DNA from: Anaerolineae bacterium
GTDB lineage: Bacteria > Chloroflexota > Anaerolineae > JAAYZQ01
Reading direction: 5' to 3'
DNA length: 56,854 bases
NCBI GenBank assembly: GCA_023544525.1
Contig: JAMJFU010000002.1
Location: forward strand, 1 to 56,854
In this document: positions 11,247 to 22,038 of the stretch, piece after piece
Numbering within the stretch: position 1 is the first letter of the stretch
How the letters are laid out: each line of letters opens with the position of its first letter
Position numbers and translations under genes: made by a program
The notes under the pieces: model-generated
Databases searched by the model: none
What the model was told of the DNA's origin: nothing
The model's input: the letters and a program-made list of their open reading frames with translations, nothing else

Positions 11247-12560
11247 GTGTCGGACGAGCTGGCCCCCCTGAGCGATCGAGAGATGGAGCTCCTCCGGCTG
11301 CTGGCCACGGGCGCCACCAACCGGGAAATCGCGCAGGAGCTGTACATCAGCGTCAACACCGTCAAGGTCCACTTGCGCAACATCTATGGCAAGCTGGACG
11401 TCGCTTCGCGCACCGAGGCGACGATGGTTGCCGTGCGCGAAGGCTGGATCGTCGTGCCGGGGATGGGTGAGGAAGGCAAAGGCGCAGAGGCAGGGGATCT
11501 GGCTGCCACCGCCGCACCTCTGCCGGAACGCTGGCCCCGTGTTTCGCTGGCCAAGCGGCTGAGCCTGGTGGTGGCCAGTTTGGTGGCGGTGATCGCACTC
11601 TTTCTGCCCCAACTTCTGGCCCTTGGGGCCAACGGTGACCAGAACGATCCCATCAGTGGCGTCTTTCCGACGGTGGCTCCTGGGGCCAACGAGAGCCGTT
11701 GGCGGACCGGCGCGCAGATGCCGACGCCGCGCACGGACCTGGCCGTGGTGGTTCATGGCCGCCGGATCTATGCCATTGGTGGTGTCAGCAACGACGGCGT
11801 GACAGACAGGGTAGAGATCTATGACCCTGACGTGGATGCGTGGACCAGCGGTAGCCCCAAGCCTACAGCGGTGGGATTTGTATCGGCCGTGGCGCTCGGT
11901 GACAAGATCTATGTGCCGGGCGGGCTCGACGCGGGGCGCGTGCCCCAGAACGTCCTGGAGATCTATGACCCTGCAACCGGTGCCTGGGAAGAAGGGGCGC
12001 CGCTTCCCAAGGCCCTGGGCGCCTATGGTCTGGCGACCCTGGACGGTGCAATCTATCTCTTAGGCGGGCGGGCCGGGCCGGAGGAGTATGTGGCCTCGGT
12101 GTATCGCTATGATCCGGCGGGTGATACCTGGGAGGAGCTGTCGCCGATGGCACAGGCACGCGGCTTTTTGGGTGCCGCGCCACTAGACGACAAGATCTAT
12201 GTCGTAGGCGGCTACGACGACAATACAGAGTATAACGCCTGCGAGGTGTACCATCCAGCGGCCGACAGCTGGACCACTTGTGCACCCCTGGGCATGCCAC
12301 GGGGCGGGCTGGCCCTGGTTGCCGTGCGGGAGCAGCTGTACGCCATTGGCGGCGGCATGGACCGCTCCCTGGCTTTCAATGAGCTCTATGATTCCCGTGT
12401 AAACGTCTGGCGGCCCATCGAGACACCTGTGCGTGGCCAATGGCGAGGCCTGGGCGCCGGTTTCCTGAACCCGTATCTGTATGCTATCGGCGGCTTTAAC
12501 CGCGGTTTCCTCAGCGTCAACGAGCGCTACCAAGCCCTGTACCAGGTTGTCCTGCCCTGA
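11247..12560 (+). CDS. Membrane-anchored LuxR-family HTH regulator with C-terminal six-blade Kelch beta-propeller
   Basis: N-terminus LSDREMELLRLLATGATNREIAQELYISVNTVKVHLRNIYGKLDV (LuxR/GerE HTH). One TM segment (LSLVVASLVAVIALFLPQLLAL). Six Kelch-like repeats, each with (I/L)Y(A/V/L)xGG. Confidence 0.85.
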   Translation: MSDELAPLSDREMELLRLLATGATNREIAQELYISVNTVKVHLRNIYGKLDVASRTEATMVAVREGWIVVPGMGEEGKGAEAGDLAATAAPLPERWPRVSLAKRLSLVVASLVAVIALFLPQLLALGANGDQNDPISGVFPTVAPGANESRWRTGAQMPTPRTDLAVVVHGRRIYAIGGVSNDGVTDRVEIYDPDVDAWTSGSPKPTAVGFVSAVALGDKIYVPGGLDAGRVPQNVLEIYDPATGAWEEGAPLPKALGAYGLATLDGAIYLLGGRAGPEEYVASVYRYDPAGDTWEELSPMAQARGFLGAAPLDDKIYVVGGYDDNTEYNACEVYHPAADSWTTCAPLGMPRGGLALVAVREQLYAIGGGMDRSLAFNELYDSRVNVWRPIETPVRGQWRGLGAGFLNPYLYAIGGFNRGFLSVNERYQALYQVVLP

Positions 12561-12581
12561 GCGAAAGCTCAGGACCTGCCT

Positions 12582-15237: not shown

Positions 15238-15330
15238 CTATTTCCTTCGCTGCCAGCGGGTCTTTTTCAGCATCTTGCGGTGTTTGTGCTTGGACGCTTT
15301 TTTCTTGCGCCATTTCTGCACTGAGCCCAT
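15238..15330 (-). CDS. 30-aa basic peptide resembling ribosomal protein bS22 (AURKAIP1/COX24-like)
   Basis: Not in the track (under 60 aa). ATG 15330 to TAG 15238 encodes MGSVQKWRKKKASKHKHRKMLKKTRWQRRK, with GGAGG 7 nt upstream. It closely resembles mycobacterial bS22 as I remember it ([30 protein letters not shown]...). Confidence 0.75.
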   Translation of the reverse strand: MGSVQKWRKKKASKHKHRKMLKKTRWQRRK

Positions 15331-15353
15331 GGTGTCACCTCCTCTCCGATCCG

Positions 15354-16424
15354 TTACAAGATGCCCACATGGCTGTGATCGCCCAGCGTCATCTTGAGCG
15401 CCTTGGGCTTGATGGGCGAGCGAGTGATGATCGAGTGCCGCCCGATGAGGCTGTCCTCGATCCGGTAGGGAATGTCAATGATCTGGCTGTGCTCCAGGAC
15501 GATGCTATGTTCGATCTCGCTACCCTCTAGGAGCACGTGATGGTAGATCGATGTAAAAGGCCCGACGTACGAATTCACGATGCGGCTGTCCTGGCCGATG
15601 ATGGCCGGGCCGCGGATCCGGCTGTTGATGACCTCGGCGCCCTTCTCCACGGTCACCTTGCCGTTGATCTGCGAGTCGCGGTCGATGTAACCATCGATGT
15701 TGTGCTCGATCTCGTCCAGGACCAGGTCGTTGGCTTCCAGCATCTCGCCGGGTTCGCCGGTGTCGATCCACCAGCCCCGGTGAATGTATGGGTGCACGTT
15801 ATAGTCCTTGTCGACCAGGTACTGGATGGCGTCGGTAATCTCCAGCTCGCCGCGCCAGGAGGGCTTGATGGCGTTCACCGCCTCCCAGATGTGCTCGTTG
15901 AACATATAGATGCCCACCAGGATCAAGTTGCTCGGCGGGTTCCGTGGCTTTTCCACCAGGCGTATGATGCGCCGGGTGTCCGGGTCGAGCTCGGCTACGC
16001 CATAGCGCGATGGGTTCTCTACCGGCGTCAATACGATCTGGGAGTCGTAGCCCGAGTCCCTGAACTCGCTGATGAGGCCCGAAATGCCGCCCTCGATGAC
16101 ATTGTCGCCCAGGAACATCACAAACCGGTCGTCTCCCAGAAAATCCCGGCTGACCTTGACAGCGTGGGCGAGGCCCAGGGGAGCATCCTGCTTGATATAG
16201 GTGATCTTGACCCCCCAGCGCCGGCCGGTCCCCACAGCTTCCTGGATCTCGGCGGCGGTATCGCCCACGACGATGCCAATATCGTCGATGCCTGCGTCGC
16301 GGATGGCTTCGATCACGCGATACAGCACCGGCTTGTTGGCTACGGGCACCAACTGCTTGGCGCTGGTATAGGTTATCGGGTAGAGCCGGGTTCCCTTGCC
16401 GCCACTCAGGATCAAGCCTTTCAT
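15354..16424 (-). CDS. rmlA: Glucose-1-phosphate thymidylyltransferase-like sugar nucleotidyltransferase (long form with C-terminal left-handed beta-helix)
   Basis: MKGLILSGGKGTRLYPITYTSAKQLVPVANKP..., 356 aa. The start overlaps the aldolase stop (ATGA at 16421-16424). Confidence 0.85.
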   Translation of the reverse strand: MKGLILSGGKGTRLYPITYTSAKQLVPVANKPVLYRVIEAIRDAGIDDIGIVVGDTAAEIQEAVGTGRRWGVKITYIKQDAPLGLAHAVKVSRDFLGDDRFVMFLGDNVIEGGISGLISEFRDSGYDSQIVLTPVENPSRYGVAELDPDTRRIIRLVEKPRNPPSNLILVGIYMFNEHIWEAVNAIKPSWRGELEITDAIQYLVDKDYNVHPYIHRGWWIDTGEPGEMLEANDLVLDEIEHNIDGYIDRDSQINGKVTVEKGAEVINSRIRGPAIIGQDSRIVNSYVGPFTSIYHHVLLEGSEIEHSIVLEHSQIIDIPYRIEDSLIGRHSIITRSPIKPKALKMTLGDHSHVGIL

Positions 16425-17272
16425 AATCTCCTAGTCTCTCCTTCAAGGTTCTTTAACACGGTCCGGGCGATGTGCTGGACCAACGCTTCCGTGTCCGTCG
16501 TGCCGGTGGCCGCCATGGAAGGCCCGGGTGGCTGGTATTCATCGCCCAGCAGGCAGATGGAACATTCGGCACACAGATCACTCCCCTGGCGCTGCAACGC
16601 TTCGCGGCGCAATTGCGTCAACTTGGCGACCGCTTCGGACGACAGGGTCTGGACCTGGCCCAGTTGCTGGGCTGCCAGCGTGATCTGGGCCGTGTGCTCC
16701 ACCTTTTCCAGGCGGAGATAGGCTTCCCATAGGGTTCTGCCCACGGTCAAGCTGCCATGATGGGCCAGGATGATCGCGTCATAGTCGCAGACGGCCCGGC
16801 GAATGCTGCTCGCCACCTCGCCGGTCCCCGGTGTGGCGTATTCGGCCGTCGGGATGGAACCCAGTGTGACGATCACTTCTGGGATGACACAGCGAGCCAG
16901 AGAGACGCCGGCAATGCTAAAGGCCGTCGCGATGGGCGGATGGGCGTGAACCACGGCGTTCACGTCCGGCCGCTGGTTGTAGACCTCTAGATGCATCATG
17001 ATCTCTGACGATGGCCGCATACCGCGCCCGCGGTGGCTTGGCACCAGCTCACCGTGGAGGTTGATCATGACCAGGTCATCGGCCGAGAGAAAGCCCTTGC
17101 TCTGGCCGCTGGCTGTCACCAGCAGTCGATCGCTGCCCAGGCGCGCCGAGAGATTGCCGTCGGTGGCAGCCACGTAGCCGCGCTCCCACATGAGCCGCGC
17201 GACGCGCACCATTTCCTGGCGCATCTCAAATTCGCTAACACGCCCATCCATCACTGTATCGCCAAAGGCCAT
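16421..17272 (-). CDS. Class II aldolase/adducin-family protein (FucA/RhaD/MtnB-like) with about 65-aa C-terminal extension
   Basis: ATDGNLSAR, SSEIMMHLEVY and VVHAHPP motifs (Zn-binding His). Tail: ...CAECSICLLGDEYQPPGPSMAATGTTDTEALVQHIARTVLKNLEGETRRL. Confidence 0.9.
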   Translation of the reverse strand: MAFGDTVMDGRVSEFEMRQEMVRVARLMWERGYVAATDGNLSARLGSDRLLVTASGQSKGFLSADDLVMINLHGELVPSHRGRGMRPSSEIMMHLEVYNQRPDVNAVVHAHPPIATAFSIAGVSLARCVIPEVIVTLGSIPTAEYATPGTGEVASSIRRAVCDYDAIILAHHGSLTVGRTLWEAYLRLEKVEHTAQITLAAQQLGQVQTLSSEAVAKLTQLRREALQRQGSDLCAECSICLLGDEYQPPGPSMAATGTTDTEALVQHIARTVLKNLEGETRRL

Positions 17273-17275
17273 CGT

Positions 17276-18298
17276 CTAGTACAACCTGTATCGCTCGCGC
17301 AACGTCTCTGATACGGCGCGCAGCATGGCAAAGGCCCGCTCGACGGTCTCGGTGCGATCAGGATTGACCAGGCAACAGGTTGCCGGGGCGAGCATGCCCT
17401 GCCGGACAATCTGGGCCCGGTCTACACCTGCACCCTCCAGGTGGTCCCACAGGCCCTCCAGCCGGTCCATGAGCGAGTCTGGGCTTTCCTTCCCCAGGTC
17501 GACCGCGCCCGTCGGCACGATACCCCAGCTAATTACCCCGCCGCGCGCGAGGAAACGGCCGATCTCACCGGCGTAACGTACAAAAAGGTCGCCCCGGGCA
17601 TAGGCGTCGAACGACAGCAACTCCAAGTCGGCTGTTAGCAGGAAATCCCAGTCGGGATTGCCACACAGGTGCAGGCCCTTCAGCCCGTTCAGGCTCGACA
17701 GGAACAGGGCCAGGTCCTCCCGGGCCATTAGATCAGTATAGCCCGACAGGCTGGAAAAAACAAATTCCAGGCCGGGGTCGTCCAGCCAGACAAAGGCTGC
17801 GGGGTGCACGGCCTGCATCTCGGCCAGTTGCTGGTTGATCTTGCCCGCCATGAACTCCAGCAGGATGGCCTTGACGTCCTCGTTGTAGATGATGGGCTTG
17901 CGCTCCTCATCGGCGACCTTCAGCCCAAAGCTGATAGGGCCGATGGTCTGTCCCCGGATGGCGATGCGATCTTGCAGGTCCAGTTCCAGAAAGCGGTGGA
18001 AGACGGCCGAGTAGGGTGGCGAGAGCGCAAAGTAGGCCAGATCCTGGCTTGCTTCGGCATAGCCCCACAGCTCTTCGTAGAAGCGGGCCGTGTCAAAGAC
18101 AACCCTCTCGTTTTCGAGATCGAGCTCGATGCCTGGAAAGCCCTCCGAGGCCTGGGCATACATATCCTCGAAGAAGCTGAGCCGGGGCAGTTGGGGCCAG
18201 AAGGGGATGTCCACGCTCAGGGCCAGGTCAAGGGCAGCATCCACGTCGGTATGGGGTAGGATGCCCATCGCCGTGGTGCGCAGCTCTGCCTCAAACAT
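17276..18298 (-). CDS. URO-D/MtaA (MT2)-like or MetE-like TIM-barrel protein, putative Zn enzyme
   Basis: Track ORF 17276..18310 (GTG). The alternative ATG 18298 is given here. GILPHTD near the N-terminus, LHLCGNPDW (HxCG, as in MT2/URO-D-family methyltransferases) and a late APATCCL Cys pair. The product call is tentative. Coding status is strong. Confidence 0.6.
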   Translation of the reverse strand: MFEAELRTTAMGILPHTDVDAALDLALSVDIPFWPQLPRLSFFEDMYAQASEGFPGIELDLENERVVFDTARFYEELWGYAEASQDLAYFALSPPYSAVFHRFLELDLQDRIAIRGQTIGPISFGLKVADEERKPIIYNEDVKAILLEFMAGKINQQLAEMQAVHPAAFVWLDDPGLEFVFSSLSGYTDLMAREDLALFLSSLNGLKGLHLCGNPDWDFLLTADLELLSFDAYARGDLFVRYAGEIGRFLARGGVISWGIVPTGAVDLGKESPDSLMDRLEGLWDHLEGAGVDRAQIVRQGMLAPATCCLVNPDRTETVERAFAMLRAVSETLRERYRLY

Positions 18299-18584
18299 GG
18301 GGCAGGGCACCCTCCGCCAGGTCCACTTCGTCTACGATGCCCACGATGACCGCCCGGATGGCACCCAGGGGCTCGCGGTCCACAACCTGCCGCGCCGAGT
18401 TTCCCTCATCCAGCACCAGGACCAGGTCGCCGACGCCCGCTTGCACCATGTCGACGGCAATGTCGTACTTGGCGGTGGGCTTGCCCTCCAGGTTCAGCTT
18501 GTCCACCACCAGCAGTTTTCGCCCCTCAAAGAGCTCGTTCTTGATGGTGGCGACGACGGTGCCGCTTACGCGCCCGATATACAT
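18291..18584 (-). CDS. BMC-P vertex protein (EutN/CcmL/PduN family)
   Basis: Track ORF 18291..18644. Real start is ATG 18584, overlapping the upstream stop (TAATG). MYIGRVSGTVVATIKNELFEGRKLLVV...GDLVLVLDEGNSARQ...AVIVGIVDEVD, 97 aa. Confidence 0.9.
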   Translation of the reverse strand: MYIGRVSGTVVATIKNELFEGRKLLVVDKLNLEGKPTAKYDIAVDMVQAGVGDLVLVLDEGNSARQVVDREPLGAIRAVIVGIVDEVDLAEGALPHV

Positions 18585-18853
18585 TAGACTACGTCCACCT
18601 CGTCTACAATGCCTGTGATGGCCAGATCGACCGGGACAAACCATTCGGGCAGCGCCAGGGCGGCCTCCCGGCTGGCGATGACAAACACCAGCTCACCCGG
18701 TCCTGCCTGGCCCGTGCCGTCGGCGGCGACCGCGGGCTCGCCCTCCGGCTGGCGGTGCTTGTCCAGTGGTTGGACGACCAGGAACTTGACGCCCTCTAGC
18801 CCCTCTGCCTTCTGAGTGGCGACCAACGTGCCGATGACCCGTGCAAGTTGCAT
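18584..18853 (-). CDS. BMC-P vertex protein (EutN/CcmL/PduN family), second paralog
   Basis: Track ORF 18584..19066. Real start is ATG 18853, 1 nt after the PduT-like stop. MQLARVIGTLVATQKAEGLEGVKFLVVQPL...LAITGIVDEVDVV, 89 aa. Confidence 0.9.
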   Translation of the reverse strand: MQLARVIGTLVATQKAEGLEGVKFLVVQPLDKHRQPEGEPAVAADGTGQAGPGELVFVIASREAALALPEWFVPVDLAITGIVDEVDVV

Positions 18854-18854
18854 G

Positions 18855-19406
18855 TTATAGGATCCTGGCCCGCATCTGCTCGTGGAGCTGCGGGATGACG
18901 ACCTGGCGCACAAGCAGGCCCTCCTGCTTGACCAGCTCGACGCCAGCGGACACAGCGGCCTGTACGTCGGCAACGGTGCCCTCCATGAGCACAAAGCTCT
19001 TGCCGCCCAGGCCATTGGCCAGGCGGATCTCCAGCAACTGGATATCAGTAGCCTTGGCCGCGGCATCGGCAGCGACGATACAGACGGCGACGGTCACGGT
19101 CTCGATGATGCCCAGGGCCTCATCCCCCCTCGGCGGCGAGGCGCTCATGAGCGCCGGAAAGACGGAGCGATGGACGTTGGGCAACAGCAGTTGATCGACC
19201 AGGGTATCGGCGGCAGCCGAGAGCCCGACCTCGAAGGACTCGCGCACCGGCCCCACCTCGCCGCCGATGAGCACCATGTACTTGCCCGGGCAGATGGAGC
19301 GCGCTTCCAATAGCTGGACCACGGCCTTTTTGACCATCGAGTCGCCCGCCAGGATGCCTGCTGCGATGCTATTTGTCTCTACCAGCGCGATGGCCGGTTC
19401 GATCAT
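18855..19406 (-). CDS. pduT: Tandem-domain BMC-T shell protein, PduT-like (pore Cys conserved)
   Basis: 183 aa. IALVETNSIAAG...ARSICPGKYMVLIGGEVGPV...LGIIETVTVAVCIVAADAAAKA...GGKSFVLMEGTVADVQAAV is colinear with Salmonella PduT as I remember it (KTICPGKFLLMLGGDIGAV...). Strong GGAGGAGGA RBS. Confidence 0.9.
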   Translation of the reverse strand: MIEPAIALVETNSIAAGILAGDSMVKKAVVQLLEARSICPGKYMVLIGGEVGPVRESFEVGLSAAADTLVDQLLLPNVHRSVFPALMSASPPRGDEALGIIETVTVAVCIVAADAAAKATDIQLLEIRLANGLGGKSFVLMEGTVADVQAAVSAGVELVKQEGLLVRQVVIPQLHEQMRARIL

Positions 19407-19485
19407 CTGGTCATCCTCCTCCAGAGGCGCGTTCGCTTTGACTGCCTGCCCCAGGGCACAATCTGCCGCCTGCCTGCCGATCAGG

Positions 19486-20850
19486 TCAGGCTCTGATCTC
19501 GATGGTGGTCTCGGTCACTCGCACCACCTTGCCGGCGATCGAGGCGTGGACGTTGGCCCCCAGTTTGCCTTCGGGAATGTGGGCGATACGGTCCCCCACT
19601 TCTACCCTGTCGCCCACTGACACCTCCGCGATGGCAGGCGCGCCGATGTGTTGCTGCAGAGGGATCGTCACCTGCGAGGGCCGGTGGTCGGACTCGTCCA
19701 GGGCGCAGACCTGATCCTGCCACTCGGTCAAGCCCAGGCGGGCGATGAGCCGGTGGGTGGGCACCAACCGGTACTCTCGAAAGGGGTGCGGCTCAAAATC
19801 GGTCCGTTTGTGCACCTCGTTCACCCATTGCTGCTCGCGTAGTTCCTGCTTGATGGAGACATAGTAGGCCATGGGAGACAGTTCCAGGGGACAGGCATAG
19901 GCCTCGCACAGGCGGCACTCGCAGCAAAGAAGCGCCGCAGTCACCTGGTCAGCCGGCCGGGCCAAACCATAGTTGATGGCCCGCATCACCTCGTGGGGCT
20001 GCAAGTCATGGCCTAGCAGGTAGCGCGGGCACAGAACGGTGCAGTCGCGACATTGGTCACAGGTCGAGATTCCGCGCCTGACCCAAGAGGTCCGGGAGCG
20101 GGTCATGTAGCGCACCACAACGTTGTCGTGCGGCAGGACCAGGAGCCCGCTGGTGGTCTTGGTCACCGGTTCGTCCAGGTCGGGGGCCACCCGGCCCATC
20201 ATTGGCCCGCCCACTACTACGGCATAGTCCTCGGGCGTACGGCTCGACCAGCGGGGCGGCTGGATCCCTCCGGCCCAGGCCAGCGTTTCGCGGATAGACG
20301 TGCCTACCGGCACCCAGAGGGTTTTCGGTTGGGCCACAGCGCCGGCGATGGTCAGGAGACGATGGGTGACGGCGGCGCCACGCGTCGCCCGGGCAATGTT
20401 GAACAGGGTCTGGACGTTCTGCACCAGGCAGCCCACCTGCAAGGGCAAGCCCGTTTCGGGCACCAGGCGGCCCGTGGCCTCGTAGACCAGGACGAACTCG
20501 TCGCCCGCGGGGTAGCGACTTTCCAGGGGAAGGATGCTCAGGTCCAGTTTCTCTCGCCAGGGCTCGATGGCCCGGCGCAGAGCGGCGGCTGCACCGCGGT
20601 AGCCCTTCTTGATGGCCAGGATGCCCCGTTCGGCACCCGTGGCCTGCATCGCCAGCTGCAGGCCACGTACCATCTCTGTCGCACGGCTTTCCATCAGCCG
20701 CTGGTCGCACTGCAGCAGCGGATCGCATTCGACGCCGTTGACAATGACGGTGTCCACCTGGGACGCGAGCTTGACGTGGGTGGGAAAACCCGCACCGCCC
20801 GCACCCACCACACCTGCAGCGCGCACAGCTTTGACGAGATTTTGATCCAT
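19486..20850 (-). CDS. pduS: PduS-like / RnfC-like Fe-S flavoprotein (B12-reductase family of microcompartments)
   Basis: 454 aa. AGVVGAGGAGFPTHVKL, YPAGDE, KTTSGLLVL, two Cys clusters (CDQCRDCTVLCP and CCECRLCEAYACP) and the C-terminal tail QQHIGAPA...GKLGANVHASIAGKV. Colinear with Salmonella PduS as I remember it. Confidence 0.9.
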   Translation of the reverse strand: MDQNLVKAVRAAGVVGAGGAGFPTHVKLASQVDTVIVNGVECDPLLQCDQRLMESRATEMVRGLQLAMQATGAERGILAIKKGYRGAAAALRRAIEPWREKLDLSILPLESRYPAGDEFVLVYEATGRLVPETGLPLQVGCLVQNVQTLFNIARATRGAAVTHRLLTIAGAVAQPKTLWVPVGTSIRETLAWAGGIQPPRWSSRTPEDYAVVVGGPMMGRVAPDLDEPVTKTTSGLLVLPHDNVVVRYMTRSRTSWVRRGISTCDQCRDCTVLCPRYLLGHDLQPHEVMRAINYGLARPADQVTAALLCCECRLCEAYACPLELSPMAYYVSIKQELREQQWVNEVHKRTDFEPHPFREYRLVPTHRLIARLGLTEWQDQVCALDESDHRPSQVTIPLQQHIGAPAIAEVSVGDRVEVGDRIAHIPEGKLGANVHASIAGKVVRVTETTIEIRA

Positions 20851-20853
20851 GCT

Positions 20854-21963
20854 CTAATGACTGCTTTCAGGGGCGTAACCGGTCATCTCTACGAATCCCC
20901 TGCCATTCGACGTGCCGTCCACGGTGACGGTCCCCTCCCAGTAGATCGGGCCAAAGCGGATGGGCAGCTCCTGATCCGGGAAGGTCGCCTCCACCCGGGC
21001 CTCCAGGTCATAGTCAGGGATACTCAACTCCCAGGCAACGGGGTAGGTGCCACCCGTCTCCGGACTGGTCCACTGGTCGCCTACCTGCAAAGAATAATCC
21101 TCCGGCTCCAGGTGCTGGACCACACCCTCGGCGGTGATCCAGGATCCCGCTGACTGGGGCTGGAGGCCTCCCGACTCGTCCCGGAAGTTGAAGAGCATCA
21201 CCCGGCTGCCGTCCTCCAGGCGCAGGCTGAACCAATCCCAACCAGAGAAGCCCTGATGCAGGTCCCAGCTACCCCATTGATGATCCATCCAGGCACTCGC
21301 TTGTACTGCGTAGCGTTGGCCATCTATATAGAGCAGGCCAACCCCATCCAGGTCCACTCGCGAATAATAGTACGATGGGCCAGCCTGGCCCATCTCGATC
21401 ACGCCTGTGCCGGCGGGGCCATGCAGCACCGGTGCCTTGCTGGTTTCCAGGTCCAGGCGCAGCCTGTAGCGCCCGCTGTCAGCCCGGAGATGGTGTTGGA
21501 TGCCATCAGCCCAGGCCCGCCACCCTCCGTTCCAGACTTCGTAGCGGTCGGCTCTGGCGCCGGCTGTCCAGAAACGCGGAAAGCTCACGCGCTCGAAGAA
21601 GACATGCTCCTCCGCGTCCTGGTCGCTGAGGGCAAAGTGGGCAAAATAGATCGGGTTGCTGACCCAATTGATGGGCACCATGTTCGCTACGCGGACGGCA
21701 GAGGGCACGTAGCTCTTGAAGAACACAAGCTCAAAGCCGTATCGCTTTCCTTCCTGATCGGTGAGAAACCCGGTGTAGTACCACCAATCGGTCCTGGCTT
21801 GAAAGTGGGCCGCCTCGTCGCGAGGAAAGCGCACCGGGTGATCGGCACTGGCTTGCTGGAACTCGAGCGGGGTGGGGTGCCGGAAAATGAAAATGGCCGT
21901 CATCAAGCCGGCGGCCAGAAACAACAAGATCGTCAACAGGATCAGGCTTAGTCTGCGGATCAC
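20854..21963 (-). CDS. AttH/CrtC-like (carotenoid 1,2-hydratase / lipocalin-like) protein with N-terminal membrane anchor
   Basis: GTG 21963 with GAGGAG RBS. N-terminal TM LSLILLTILLFLAAGLMTAIFIF. Motifs FPRDEAAH...DWWYYTGFL...GFELVFF...WMDHQWG are typical of the AttH/CrtC family. Confidence 0.75.
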   Translation of the reverse strand: MIRRLSLILLTILLFLAAGLMTAIFIFRHPTPLEFQQASADHPVRFPRDEAAHFQARTDWWYYTGFLTDQEGKRYGFELVFFKSYVPSAVRVANMVPINWVSNPIYFAHFALSDQDAEEHVFFERVSFPRFWTAGARADRYEVWNGGWRAWADGIQHHLRADSGRYRLRLDLETSKAPVLHGPAGTGVIEMGQAGPSYYYSRVDLDGVGLLYIDGQRYAVQASAWMDHQWGSWDLHQGFSGWDWFSLRLEDGSRVMLFNFRDESGGLQPQSAGSWITAEGVVQHLEPEDYSLQVGDQWTSPETGGTYPVAWELSIPDYDLEARVEATFPDQELPIRFGPIYWEGTVTVDGTSNGRGFVEMTGYAPESSH

Positions 21964-22009
21964 CCACTACTCCTCGGCTATCCCCATTGAGCGAACGCCA
22001 AGCCGGTAC

Positions 22010-22038
22010 ATGATACCACCGTTCGGCAGCGTTGGCAA
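22010..22038 (-). promoter_or_regulatory. Promoter TTGCCA-N17-TATCAT with extended -10 (TGg), probable start of the microcompartment-related operon
   Basis: On the minus strand, -35 is at 22033-22038 and -10 is at 22010-22015, about 45 nt upstream of GTG 21963. Confidence 0.45.

Follow-up and report, generated by a model that had tools for sequence, protein, structure and literature searches.

A bacterial microcompartment gene block without a hexamer gene in an Anaerolineae contig, most likely the detached half of a split SPU-type locus

The gene block and its products

The stretch of DNA analysed here, called the window, comprises positions 1 to 56,854 (56.8 kb) of contig JAMJFU010000002.1 from an Anaerolineae bacterium (assembly GCA_023544525.1), and its element of interest is a block of bacterial microcompartment (BMC) genes at 16421-20850 on the minus strand. 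In the direction of reading, the block encodes a PduS-like protein, a BMC-T shell protein, two BMC-P vertex proteins (Pa and Pb), a protein that we call X and a class II aldolase. It forms part of a run of nine packed minus-strand open reading frames (ORFs; 15238-21963) described in an earlier interpretation made without database searches (the sequence-only reading). All nine were confirmed at the same coordinates and with the same gaps by an ORF and junction check, and Pfam and NCBIfam agreed with that reading on every identity except that of X. Gaps of 3 nt (AttH to PduS), 79 nt (PduS to BMC-T), 1 nt (BMC-T to Pa), 3 nt (X to aldolase) and 23 nt (RmlA to the bS22 ORF) separate the genes, and overlaps of 1 nt (Pa/Pb), 8 nt (Pb/X) and 4 nt (ATGA, aldolase stop and RmlA start) join the others; the flanking AttH, RmlA and bS22 genes are treated below.

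The PduS-like flavin/Fe-S protein (19486-20850, minus strand; 454 aa) contains the Pfam domains Complex1_51K (2e-47), SLBB, Fer4_17 and, at its C terminus, RnfC_N, an order that corresponds to the circular permutation typical of MNdh, the metabolosome NADH dehydrogenase (PMC11626177). The adjacent BMC-T (18855-19406, minus strand) is a PduT-like protein with two tandem PF00936 domains (Pfam, 4e-41), which matched the NCBIfam model TIGR02526 eut_PduT at 3e-34, below the cut-off of that model. Its pore motif, C39-P40-G41-K42, was invariant in 11 BMC-T orthologues, in agreement with the CP(G/S)K motif that is universal in T proteins adjoining MNdh and that binds a 4Fe-4S cluster at the pore (PMC11626177). 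With its four MNdh domains in the order Complex1_51K–SLBB–Fer4–RnfC_N and a CPGK-bearing tandem-BMC protein 79 nt away, the pair showed no sequence-level difference from the described MNdh/BMC-T^SE module (PMC11626177), its activity being read from sequence.

The two vertex proteins, Pa (18584-18853, minus strand; 89 aa; PF03319, 2e-25) and Pb (18291-18584, minus strand; 97 aa; PF03319, 3e-23), fell into two of the three clean BMC-P orthogroups found in related loci, which are designated here by L numbers. Thus, Pa was 77-78% identical to the Pa proteins of L086, L088 and L090, compared with 39-43% to the other two orthogroups, and Pb was 66-74% identical to its counterparts in the same loci. 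The third orthogroup, Pg (72% identity between L086 and L090), adjoins the aldehyde dehydrogenase (AldDh) gene in relatives and is missing from the window. According to the BMC catalogue, the genes of the grey and the orange pentamer always adjoin each other and that of the third may be found elsewhere; in SPU7 a satellite carries the grey/orange pair, and the main locus carries the green member (Sutter 2021, PMC8217296). The presence of Pa and Pb without Pg therefore fits the adjacency rule, SPU7 being a described case with exactly such a split. If Pa, Pb and Pg correspond to the BMC-P triplet of SPU loci, the window holds the adjacent Pa/Pb pair and the relatives alone hold Pg.

For its part, the class II aldolase (16421-17272, minus strand; 283 aa; FucA/AraD family, PF00596, 2e-48) matched no NCBIfam equivalog above cut-off; its orthologue, encoded by the final gene of the unsplit locus L090, is 54% identical to it over 196 aa. 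In the alignment, its C-terminal extension (16424-16590, minus strand) consists of a CxxCxxC motif, a linker and an amphipathic helix, TEALVQHIARTVLKNLEG. The CxxCxxC motif was conserved between the aldolase domain and the helix in 6/6 full-length aldolases of the module, a hint that the linker contains a small metal or Fe-S site. The helix, LVxxIxxxVLKNLxG in the aldolases of the window, L088 and L091, resembles an encapsulation peptide (EP), so that the aldolase is a predicted BMC cargo. C-terminal EPs are known on the pfam00596 aldolases of SPU5, ACI, MUF2/3 and PVM loci (Sutter 2021, PMC8217296; Dwyer 2024, PMC11585597); accordingly, the SPU5 combination of a pore-cysteine BMC-T beside PduS and a pfam00596 aldolase with a C-terminal EP-like helix is found here at the level of sequence prediction. 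EP-like amphipathic helices were also observed N-terminally in the AldDh proteins of relatives. Such tails on both enzymes argue for a complete shell, since cargo tags would otherwise be meaningless.

When all six frames of the window were searched, no further BMC, EutN, AldDh, DERA, RpiB, MBL, Tdp or third-pentamer ORF came to light, in agreement with the statement of the sequence-only reading that the 56.8 kb hold neither a BMC-H hexamer nor an acylating aldehyde dehydrogenase. The surroundings of the block are free of main-locus genes for about 15 kb in one direction and 35 kb in the other. The window also lacks any PF00171 homologue of the BMC AldDh, whose gene directly precedes that of PduS in relatives, and the SPU signature domains pfam01791 (DERA) and pfam02502 (RpiB) are likewise absent from it; both are present in the orthologous contiguous locus L090 and in the first-half locus L183. 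With two BMC-P genes, one BMC-T gene and no single-domain PF00936 ORF in any frame, the window falls outside the definition of a main locus, and its T, Pa and Pb genes with PduS and the aldolase have the arrangement of a satellite locus as defined in the same catalogue (Sutter 2021). For a main locus elsewhere in the same genome, to which the definition also refers, the support is indirect and comes from unsplit and complementary loci. One weak candidate, a 132-aa ORF directly downstream of rmlB (12186-12581, minus strand), gave a phmmer match to EutM with an E value of 0.022 and belonged to no Pfam or NCBIfam family; this match is probably due to chance.

Complete loci and half-loci in related genomes

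Close relatives of the T protein number in the hundreds among metagenomes and metagenome-assembled genomes (MAGs) of Anaerolineae/Chloroflexota, and gene order was rebuilt in about 100 related loci, including 80 metagenomic loci with T orthologues. In L090 (T 63% identical) the orthologues of the block stand at the end of an unsplit locus, RpiB–DERA–87aa–Tdp(CsoS1D_N)–BMC-H–MBL–Pg–AldDh–PduS–T–Pa–Pb–aldolase. L086 (T 70% identical) has the same unsplit backbone with extra genes, Tdp–H–MBL–Pg–AldDh–…–PduS–…–T–Pa–Pb, and L172 and L178 show the order Pg–AldDh–PduS–T–Pa–Pb–Ald. The PduS-like protein of the window was 61-66% identical to those encoded after AldDh in the unsplit L090 and L086.

Other loci are broken at one of two points. 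At the first, after AldDh, the 323-kb contig of L183 carries RpiB–DERA–Tdp–H–MBL–Pg–AldDh, after which come 10 kb of unrelated genes, and L092 has the same junction. At the second, after PduS, L097-L102 end in …AldDh–PduS, and L088 starts with T–Pa–Pb–Ald and has no PduS. Both kinds of half-locus thus exist in nature. Within the clade of the window (T at least 81% identical) the order was always PduS–(two optional genes)–T–Pa–Pb–(X)–aldolase, and none of the 11 metagenomic loci in which PduS has 5 kb or more of sequence upstream of it contained a main-half gene there. These 11 loci, together with the common occurrence of the window-type order, indicate that the split is a stable feature of the clade.

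Most relatives contain two genes between PduS and BMC-T, both missing from the 79-nt gap of the window. The first encodes a protein of ∼165-175 aa with a weak match to DUF6812, and the second a receiver-domain protein with a ParA/MinD-type ATPase (Response_reg plus AAA_31/ParA/CbiA). The insert was observed in L086 (8214-9962), L001 (7227-8868), L093 (6711-8339) and many of L105-L171. We take the presence of a ParA-like ATPase inside a BMC locus to recall the McdA carboxysome-positioning system. In the main half, an MBL-fold protein was conserved between BMC-H and Pg (L086, 1508-2182; L090, 3098-3781; L183, 8975-9667), its place being occupied in L097-L102 by an inorganic pyrophosphatase (L097, 1550-2086); neither protein is mentioned in the SPU descriptions that were compared.

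Taken together, these gene orders make it most likely that 16421-20850 is the detached distal half, a satellite in the sense of Sutter 2021, of a split SPU-type (SPU3/SPU5-like) Anaerolineae metabolosome locus. The sequence-only reading had offered a satellite of a main BMC locus elsewhere as one of two possibilities, and this one is now strongly supported: the orthologues occupy the 3' end of complete SPU-type loci, and the complementary half stands alone in L183 and L092. On the view that the block is one half of a catalogued SPU locus, and no new organelle devoid of hexamers, the hexamer and the core enzymes that it lacks probably have their genes at another place in the genome. Such a second locus, outside the window, would supply BMC-H, BMC-Tdp, Pg, an N-terminally tagged acylating AldDh, the MBL-fold protein, DERA and RpiB, and with them the facets of the shell, the cleavage of deoxyribose-5-phosphate into glyceraldehyde-3-phosphate together with acetaldehyde, and the oxidation of the aldehyde. 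Pa and Pb would be two of three vertex-pentamer paralogues, capping the vertices together with Pg, and the aldolase would enter as cargo through its EP-like C-terminal helix. The PduS-like protein would oxidize the NADH formed by the encapsulated AldDh, and the electrons would travel along its pair of 4Fe-4S clusters to the one that Cys39 holds at the BMC-T pore, and from there to the outside of the shell. X would be an extra Zn-enzyme-like protein, confined to this sub-lineage and devoid of an encapsulation tag.

Several observations weigh against this account. The two halves were not found together in one genome by accession and assembly pairing: MFC2030713 and MFC2037729 belong to two assemblies (GCA_042578525.1 and GCA_042579165.1), the accessions MGQ9585750 and MGQ9600367 are 14.6k apart, and P0160 and P0269, paired by shared source pattern, came from different samples and have different break types. 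Genomes of the L183 type could simply lack the second half, and those of the window type the first. In addition, the subtype may be SPU3 or SPU5 (the relatives mix traits of both); the aldolases annotated in L001, L002 and L093 have no EP helix; and a split SPU locus leaves the role of X unexplained.

The same gene orders bear on two other explanations. The block could be a portable satellite that serves a different Anaerolineae main BMC, SPU6 or EUT3, adding to it an electron conduit, vertex paralogues and an aldolase. Both types are catalogued as main loci of Anaerolineae, SPU6 has no PduS/T of its own, and MNdh/T pairs often lie in satellite loci and show little correlation with BMC type (PMC11626177). 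However, every contiguous arrangement found in this analysis joins the block to Tdp(CsoS1D_N)–H–MBL–Pg–AldDh (N-terminal EP) and none to SPU6-like genes, and SPU6 already has its own BMC-P triplet and an AldDh with a C-terminal EP, which makes this explanation unlikely.

Less probable still is an autonomous compartment without hexamers, in a clade that lost or never had the hexamer half. BMC-T pseudohexamers would form its facets and Pa and Pb its vertices, with the EP-tagged aldolase and possibly X inside and PduS as redox partner. In its favour, BMC-H was found neither in the 56.8 kb of the window nor, for any of the split-clade loci, within ±10 kb, and the module shows high conservation, with T 81-96% identical in dozens of metagenomic contigs. 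Nevertheless, the orthologous genes of relatives belong to complete, H-containing loci, BMC-H and the third BMC-P exist as a separate half-locus in related genomes, and MNdh would have no NADH source if AldDh were absent. We know of no report of a shell made of T and P proteins only; such a BMC shell, if real, would be the first in nature to do without BMC-H.

Protein X and the flanking genes

Protein X (17276-18298, minus strand; 340 aa) had been described as URO-D/MtaA-like with an HxCG motif. It matched nothing in Pfam (even at E ≤ 1), NCBIfam or the PDB, whether searched as a single sequence or as a profile, and the description therefore holds at the level of fold only. Its AlphaFold model (pLDDT 93.3) has a TIM-barrel fold, and Foldseek aligned it with the C-terminal domains of MetE (4e-7), Methanosarcina mazei MtaA (4ay7, 7e-6) and UROD (2eja, 4.5e-5), with query-normalized TM values of 0.5-0.64. 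H210, C212 and C308 (H-x-C…C) were invariant in 40 homologues and constitute a putative Zn site, their positions in the model being compatible with the Zn site of MetE/MtaA. The model thus supports a relationship at superfamily level only. X has in common with the MetE C-terminal domain/MtaA (MT2)/UROD superfamily the predicted fold and the invariant triad, but it differs from it in lacking any sequence match to PF01717, PF01208 or a PDB chain, and no corrinoid or folate partner is encoded nearby.

Of the 80 metagenomic loci, 12 have X inserted between Pb and the aldolase; in 34 others Pb abuts the aldolase and X is absent (34/46 informative loci). It is also missing from L091, whose flanks are otherwise like those of the window, and from all unsplit loci. 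The family itself is a large one, with more than 4,900 clusters (90% identity) and an occurrence in at least 576 species-representative genomes, and its members retain 50-57% identity across phyla, including Desulfobacterota, Bacillota (Moorella, Thermincola, Syntrophomonadaceae) and others. Among the 80 best genome matches, 79 had no BMC gene within 10 kb, and L006 was the sole Anaerolineaceae locus. Neighbourhood clustering of 79 non-Chloroflexi X loci revealed no conserved neighbour; a hybrid-cluster protein gene lay near X in 11 of them, and the remaining clusters were spurious overlapping frames. Compared with its stand-alone homologues, X has no terminal extension, so no encapsulation tag was seen. 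X is therefore a lineage-specific passenger or accessory and not a signature enzyme, in view of its absence from 34 loci, L091 and the unsplit loci, the size and BMC-free surroundings of its family elsewhere, and the lack of an extension. It is nonetheless the only new element of the block, a large anaerobe family with a MetE/MtaA-like fold and no Pfam model, and its occasional insertion between shell and cargo genes offers one weak lead to its function.

The AttH/CrtC-like protein encoded upstream of PduS (20854-21963, minus strand) is a double-lipocalin protein with an N-terminal hydrophobic segment (Pfam CrtC, 4e-43; Lipocalin_9, 6e-43). Its gene precedes PduS in some close relatives only (e.g., L001, L103 and L104) and is absent in L091, L002, L086, L090 and L093; it is possibly cotranscribed with the BMC module. 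The promoter proposed upstream of it (22010-22038, minus strand) was recovered by the scan as a sigma-70-like match (TTGCCA-17-TATCAT with TG, 10/12 matches), but such sites were not enriched, with four in the region against 2.3±1.6 in shuffled sequences.

On the other side of the block lies the gene for RmlA (15354-16424, minus strand), a long-form glucose-1-phosphate thymidylyltransferase (Pfam NTP_transferase; TIGR01208 rmlA_long, 469 bits for a cut-off of 320), which follows the aldolase in closer relatives only (T at least 81% identical). The mini-ORF downstream of it (15238-15330, minus strand; 30 aa) was correctly recognized as ribosomal protein bS22 (NCBIfam NF047430 ribo_bS22, 55 bits for a cut-off of 34). 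This bS22 equivalog in Chloroflexota is wedged between rmlA and the gene for a B12-binding radical SAM protein, which lies 150 nt downstream, and 30-aa ORFs occupy the same position in L001 (12869-12961) and L091 (6098-6190). The 11-bp hairpin noted downstream of bS22 (15198-15167) is real and stable, the 91-nt region folding at -45.7 kcal/mol (z = -3.8), and a second terminator-like hairpin is located at 15231-15210. No tRNA or tmRNA gene (ARAGORN) and no Rfam family at the gathering threshold were detected in the whole 56.8-kb window.

AttH, the SPASM and B12-binding radical SAM genes, RmlA, bS22 and RmlB accompany the module in close relatives only, and all are absent from L002, L088, L086 and L090. 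AttH, RmlA, bS22 and the radical SAM genes are thus neighbours, not parts of the BMC module, and the supposedly atypical coupling of a BMC locus to RmlA and bS22 comes down to simple adjacency.

These distributions also bear on the second possibility of the sequence-only reading, an uncatalogued redox/B12 module in which PduS would act as cobalamin reductase for an MT2-like X and the B12-binding radical SAM enzyme, with the aldolase as aldehyde-producing cargo. The MetE/MtaA fold and His-Cys-Cys triad of X and the closeness of the radical SAM gene would suit such a module, and Salmonella PduS was indeed first described as a cobalamin reductase; the PduS/PduT pair is, however, now read as a general NADH dehydrogenase/electron conduit that recycles NAD+ and not as a B12 reductase (PMC11626177). 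Moreover, neither X nor the radical SAM genes are conserved with the module, X is not associated with BMC genes in 79 of 80 other genomes, and no corrinoid protein is encoded in the block, so that this possibility has very little probability left.

Finally, the least credible explanation is that a BMC locus was lost and that the block is what remains of it, in decay and no longer functional: main-half genes are missing from the window and toxin-antitoxin genes and a transposase have entered the module of L093/L094, but every ORF is intact, the packing is tight, conservation across many metagenomes is high, and catalytic and cluster-binding residues are kept. In L093 (and equally in L094; MAG lineage GCA_964593865.1) a PIN-toxin pair separates T from Pa, a BrnT/BrnA-like pair separates Pa from Pb, and a Transposase_31 gene follows the aldolase; these interruptions of the module (L093, 8940-10449 and 12479-13486) leave every BMC gene intact.

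Comparison with catalogued microcompartment loci

As the distal half of a split SPU-type locus, the favoured explanation, the block loses its apparent anomaly, that of a shell operon without a hexamer, and takes its place within a catalogued BMC type. In Anaerolineae, loci of this type show two recurrent break points, one behind AldDh and one behind PduS. A survey restricted to main loci will therefore miss or mistype such organisms, and half-loci need to be consolidated before BMC function is inferred from MAGs. Every component of the block, and the split itself, is already described in the BMC catalogue, whose Supplementary Data 2 includes split SPU loci and satellites with PduS/T or with BMC-P and aldolase (Sutter 2021, PMC8217296). 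A PVM-type fucose/rhamnose metabolosome was considered and discarded: only the aldolase is shared, the relatives carry DERA/RpiB, and no PTAC or acetate kinase was called in L086 or L090.

The closest likeness is to SPU5 and SPU3 (PMC8217296; PMC11585597). With this group the window shares a PduS homologue beside a pore-cysteine BMC-T^s and an adjacent BMC-P pair that probably belongs to a triplet, and with SPU5 a pfam00596 aldolase with a C-terminal EP, predicted in the present case. The contiguous relatives add an AldDh with an N-terminal EP, a single BMC-H and a CsoS1D-like BMC-Tdp, as in SPU5/SPU3, and DERA plus RpiB in the RpiB-then-DERA order of SPU3. They thus combine features of SPU3 (both signature enzymes) with features of SPU5 (PduS/T-Cys, aldolase-EP and CsoS1D-like Tdp), and they differ from both in the MBL-fold protein between H and Pg. 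The window, for its part, differs in being split, without H, Tdp, Pg, AldDh, DERA or RpiB, and in the extra gene X, which is absent from SPU descriptions.

A second likeness is to catalogued satellites. The displacement of adjacent BMC-P paralogues from the main locus recalls the satellites of HO type I (two BMC-P and a pfam00596 aldolase), MIC3 (a BMC-P triplet and an aldolase) and SPU7, and the displaced MNdh/BMC-T^SE pair recalls the PduS/T satellite pairs of ACI, SPU1, HO, FRAG1/6 and PVM. In contrast to these, the window has both modules fused in a single arrangement, PduS–T–Pa–Pb–(X)–Ald, and its host belongs to the Anaerolineae, whereas the hosts of the catalogued satellites are Myxococcota, Planctomycetes or Acidobacteria.

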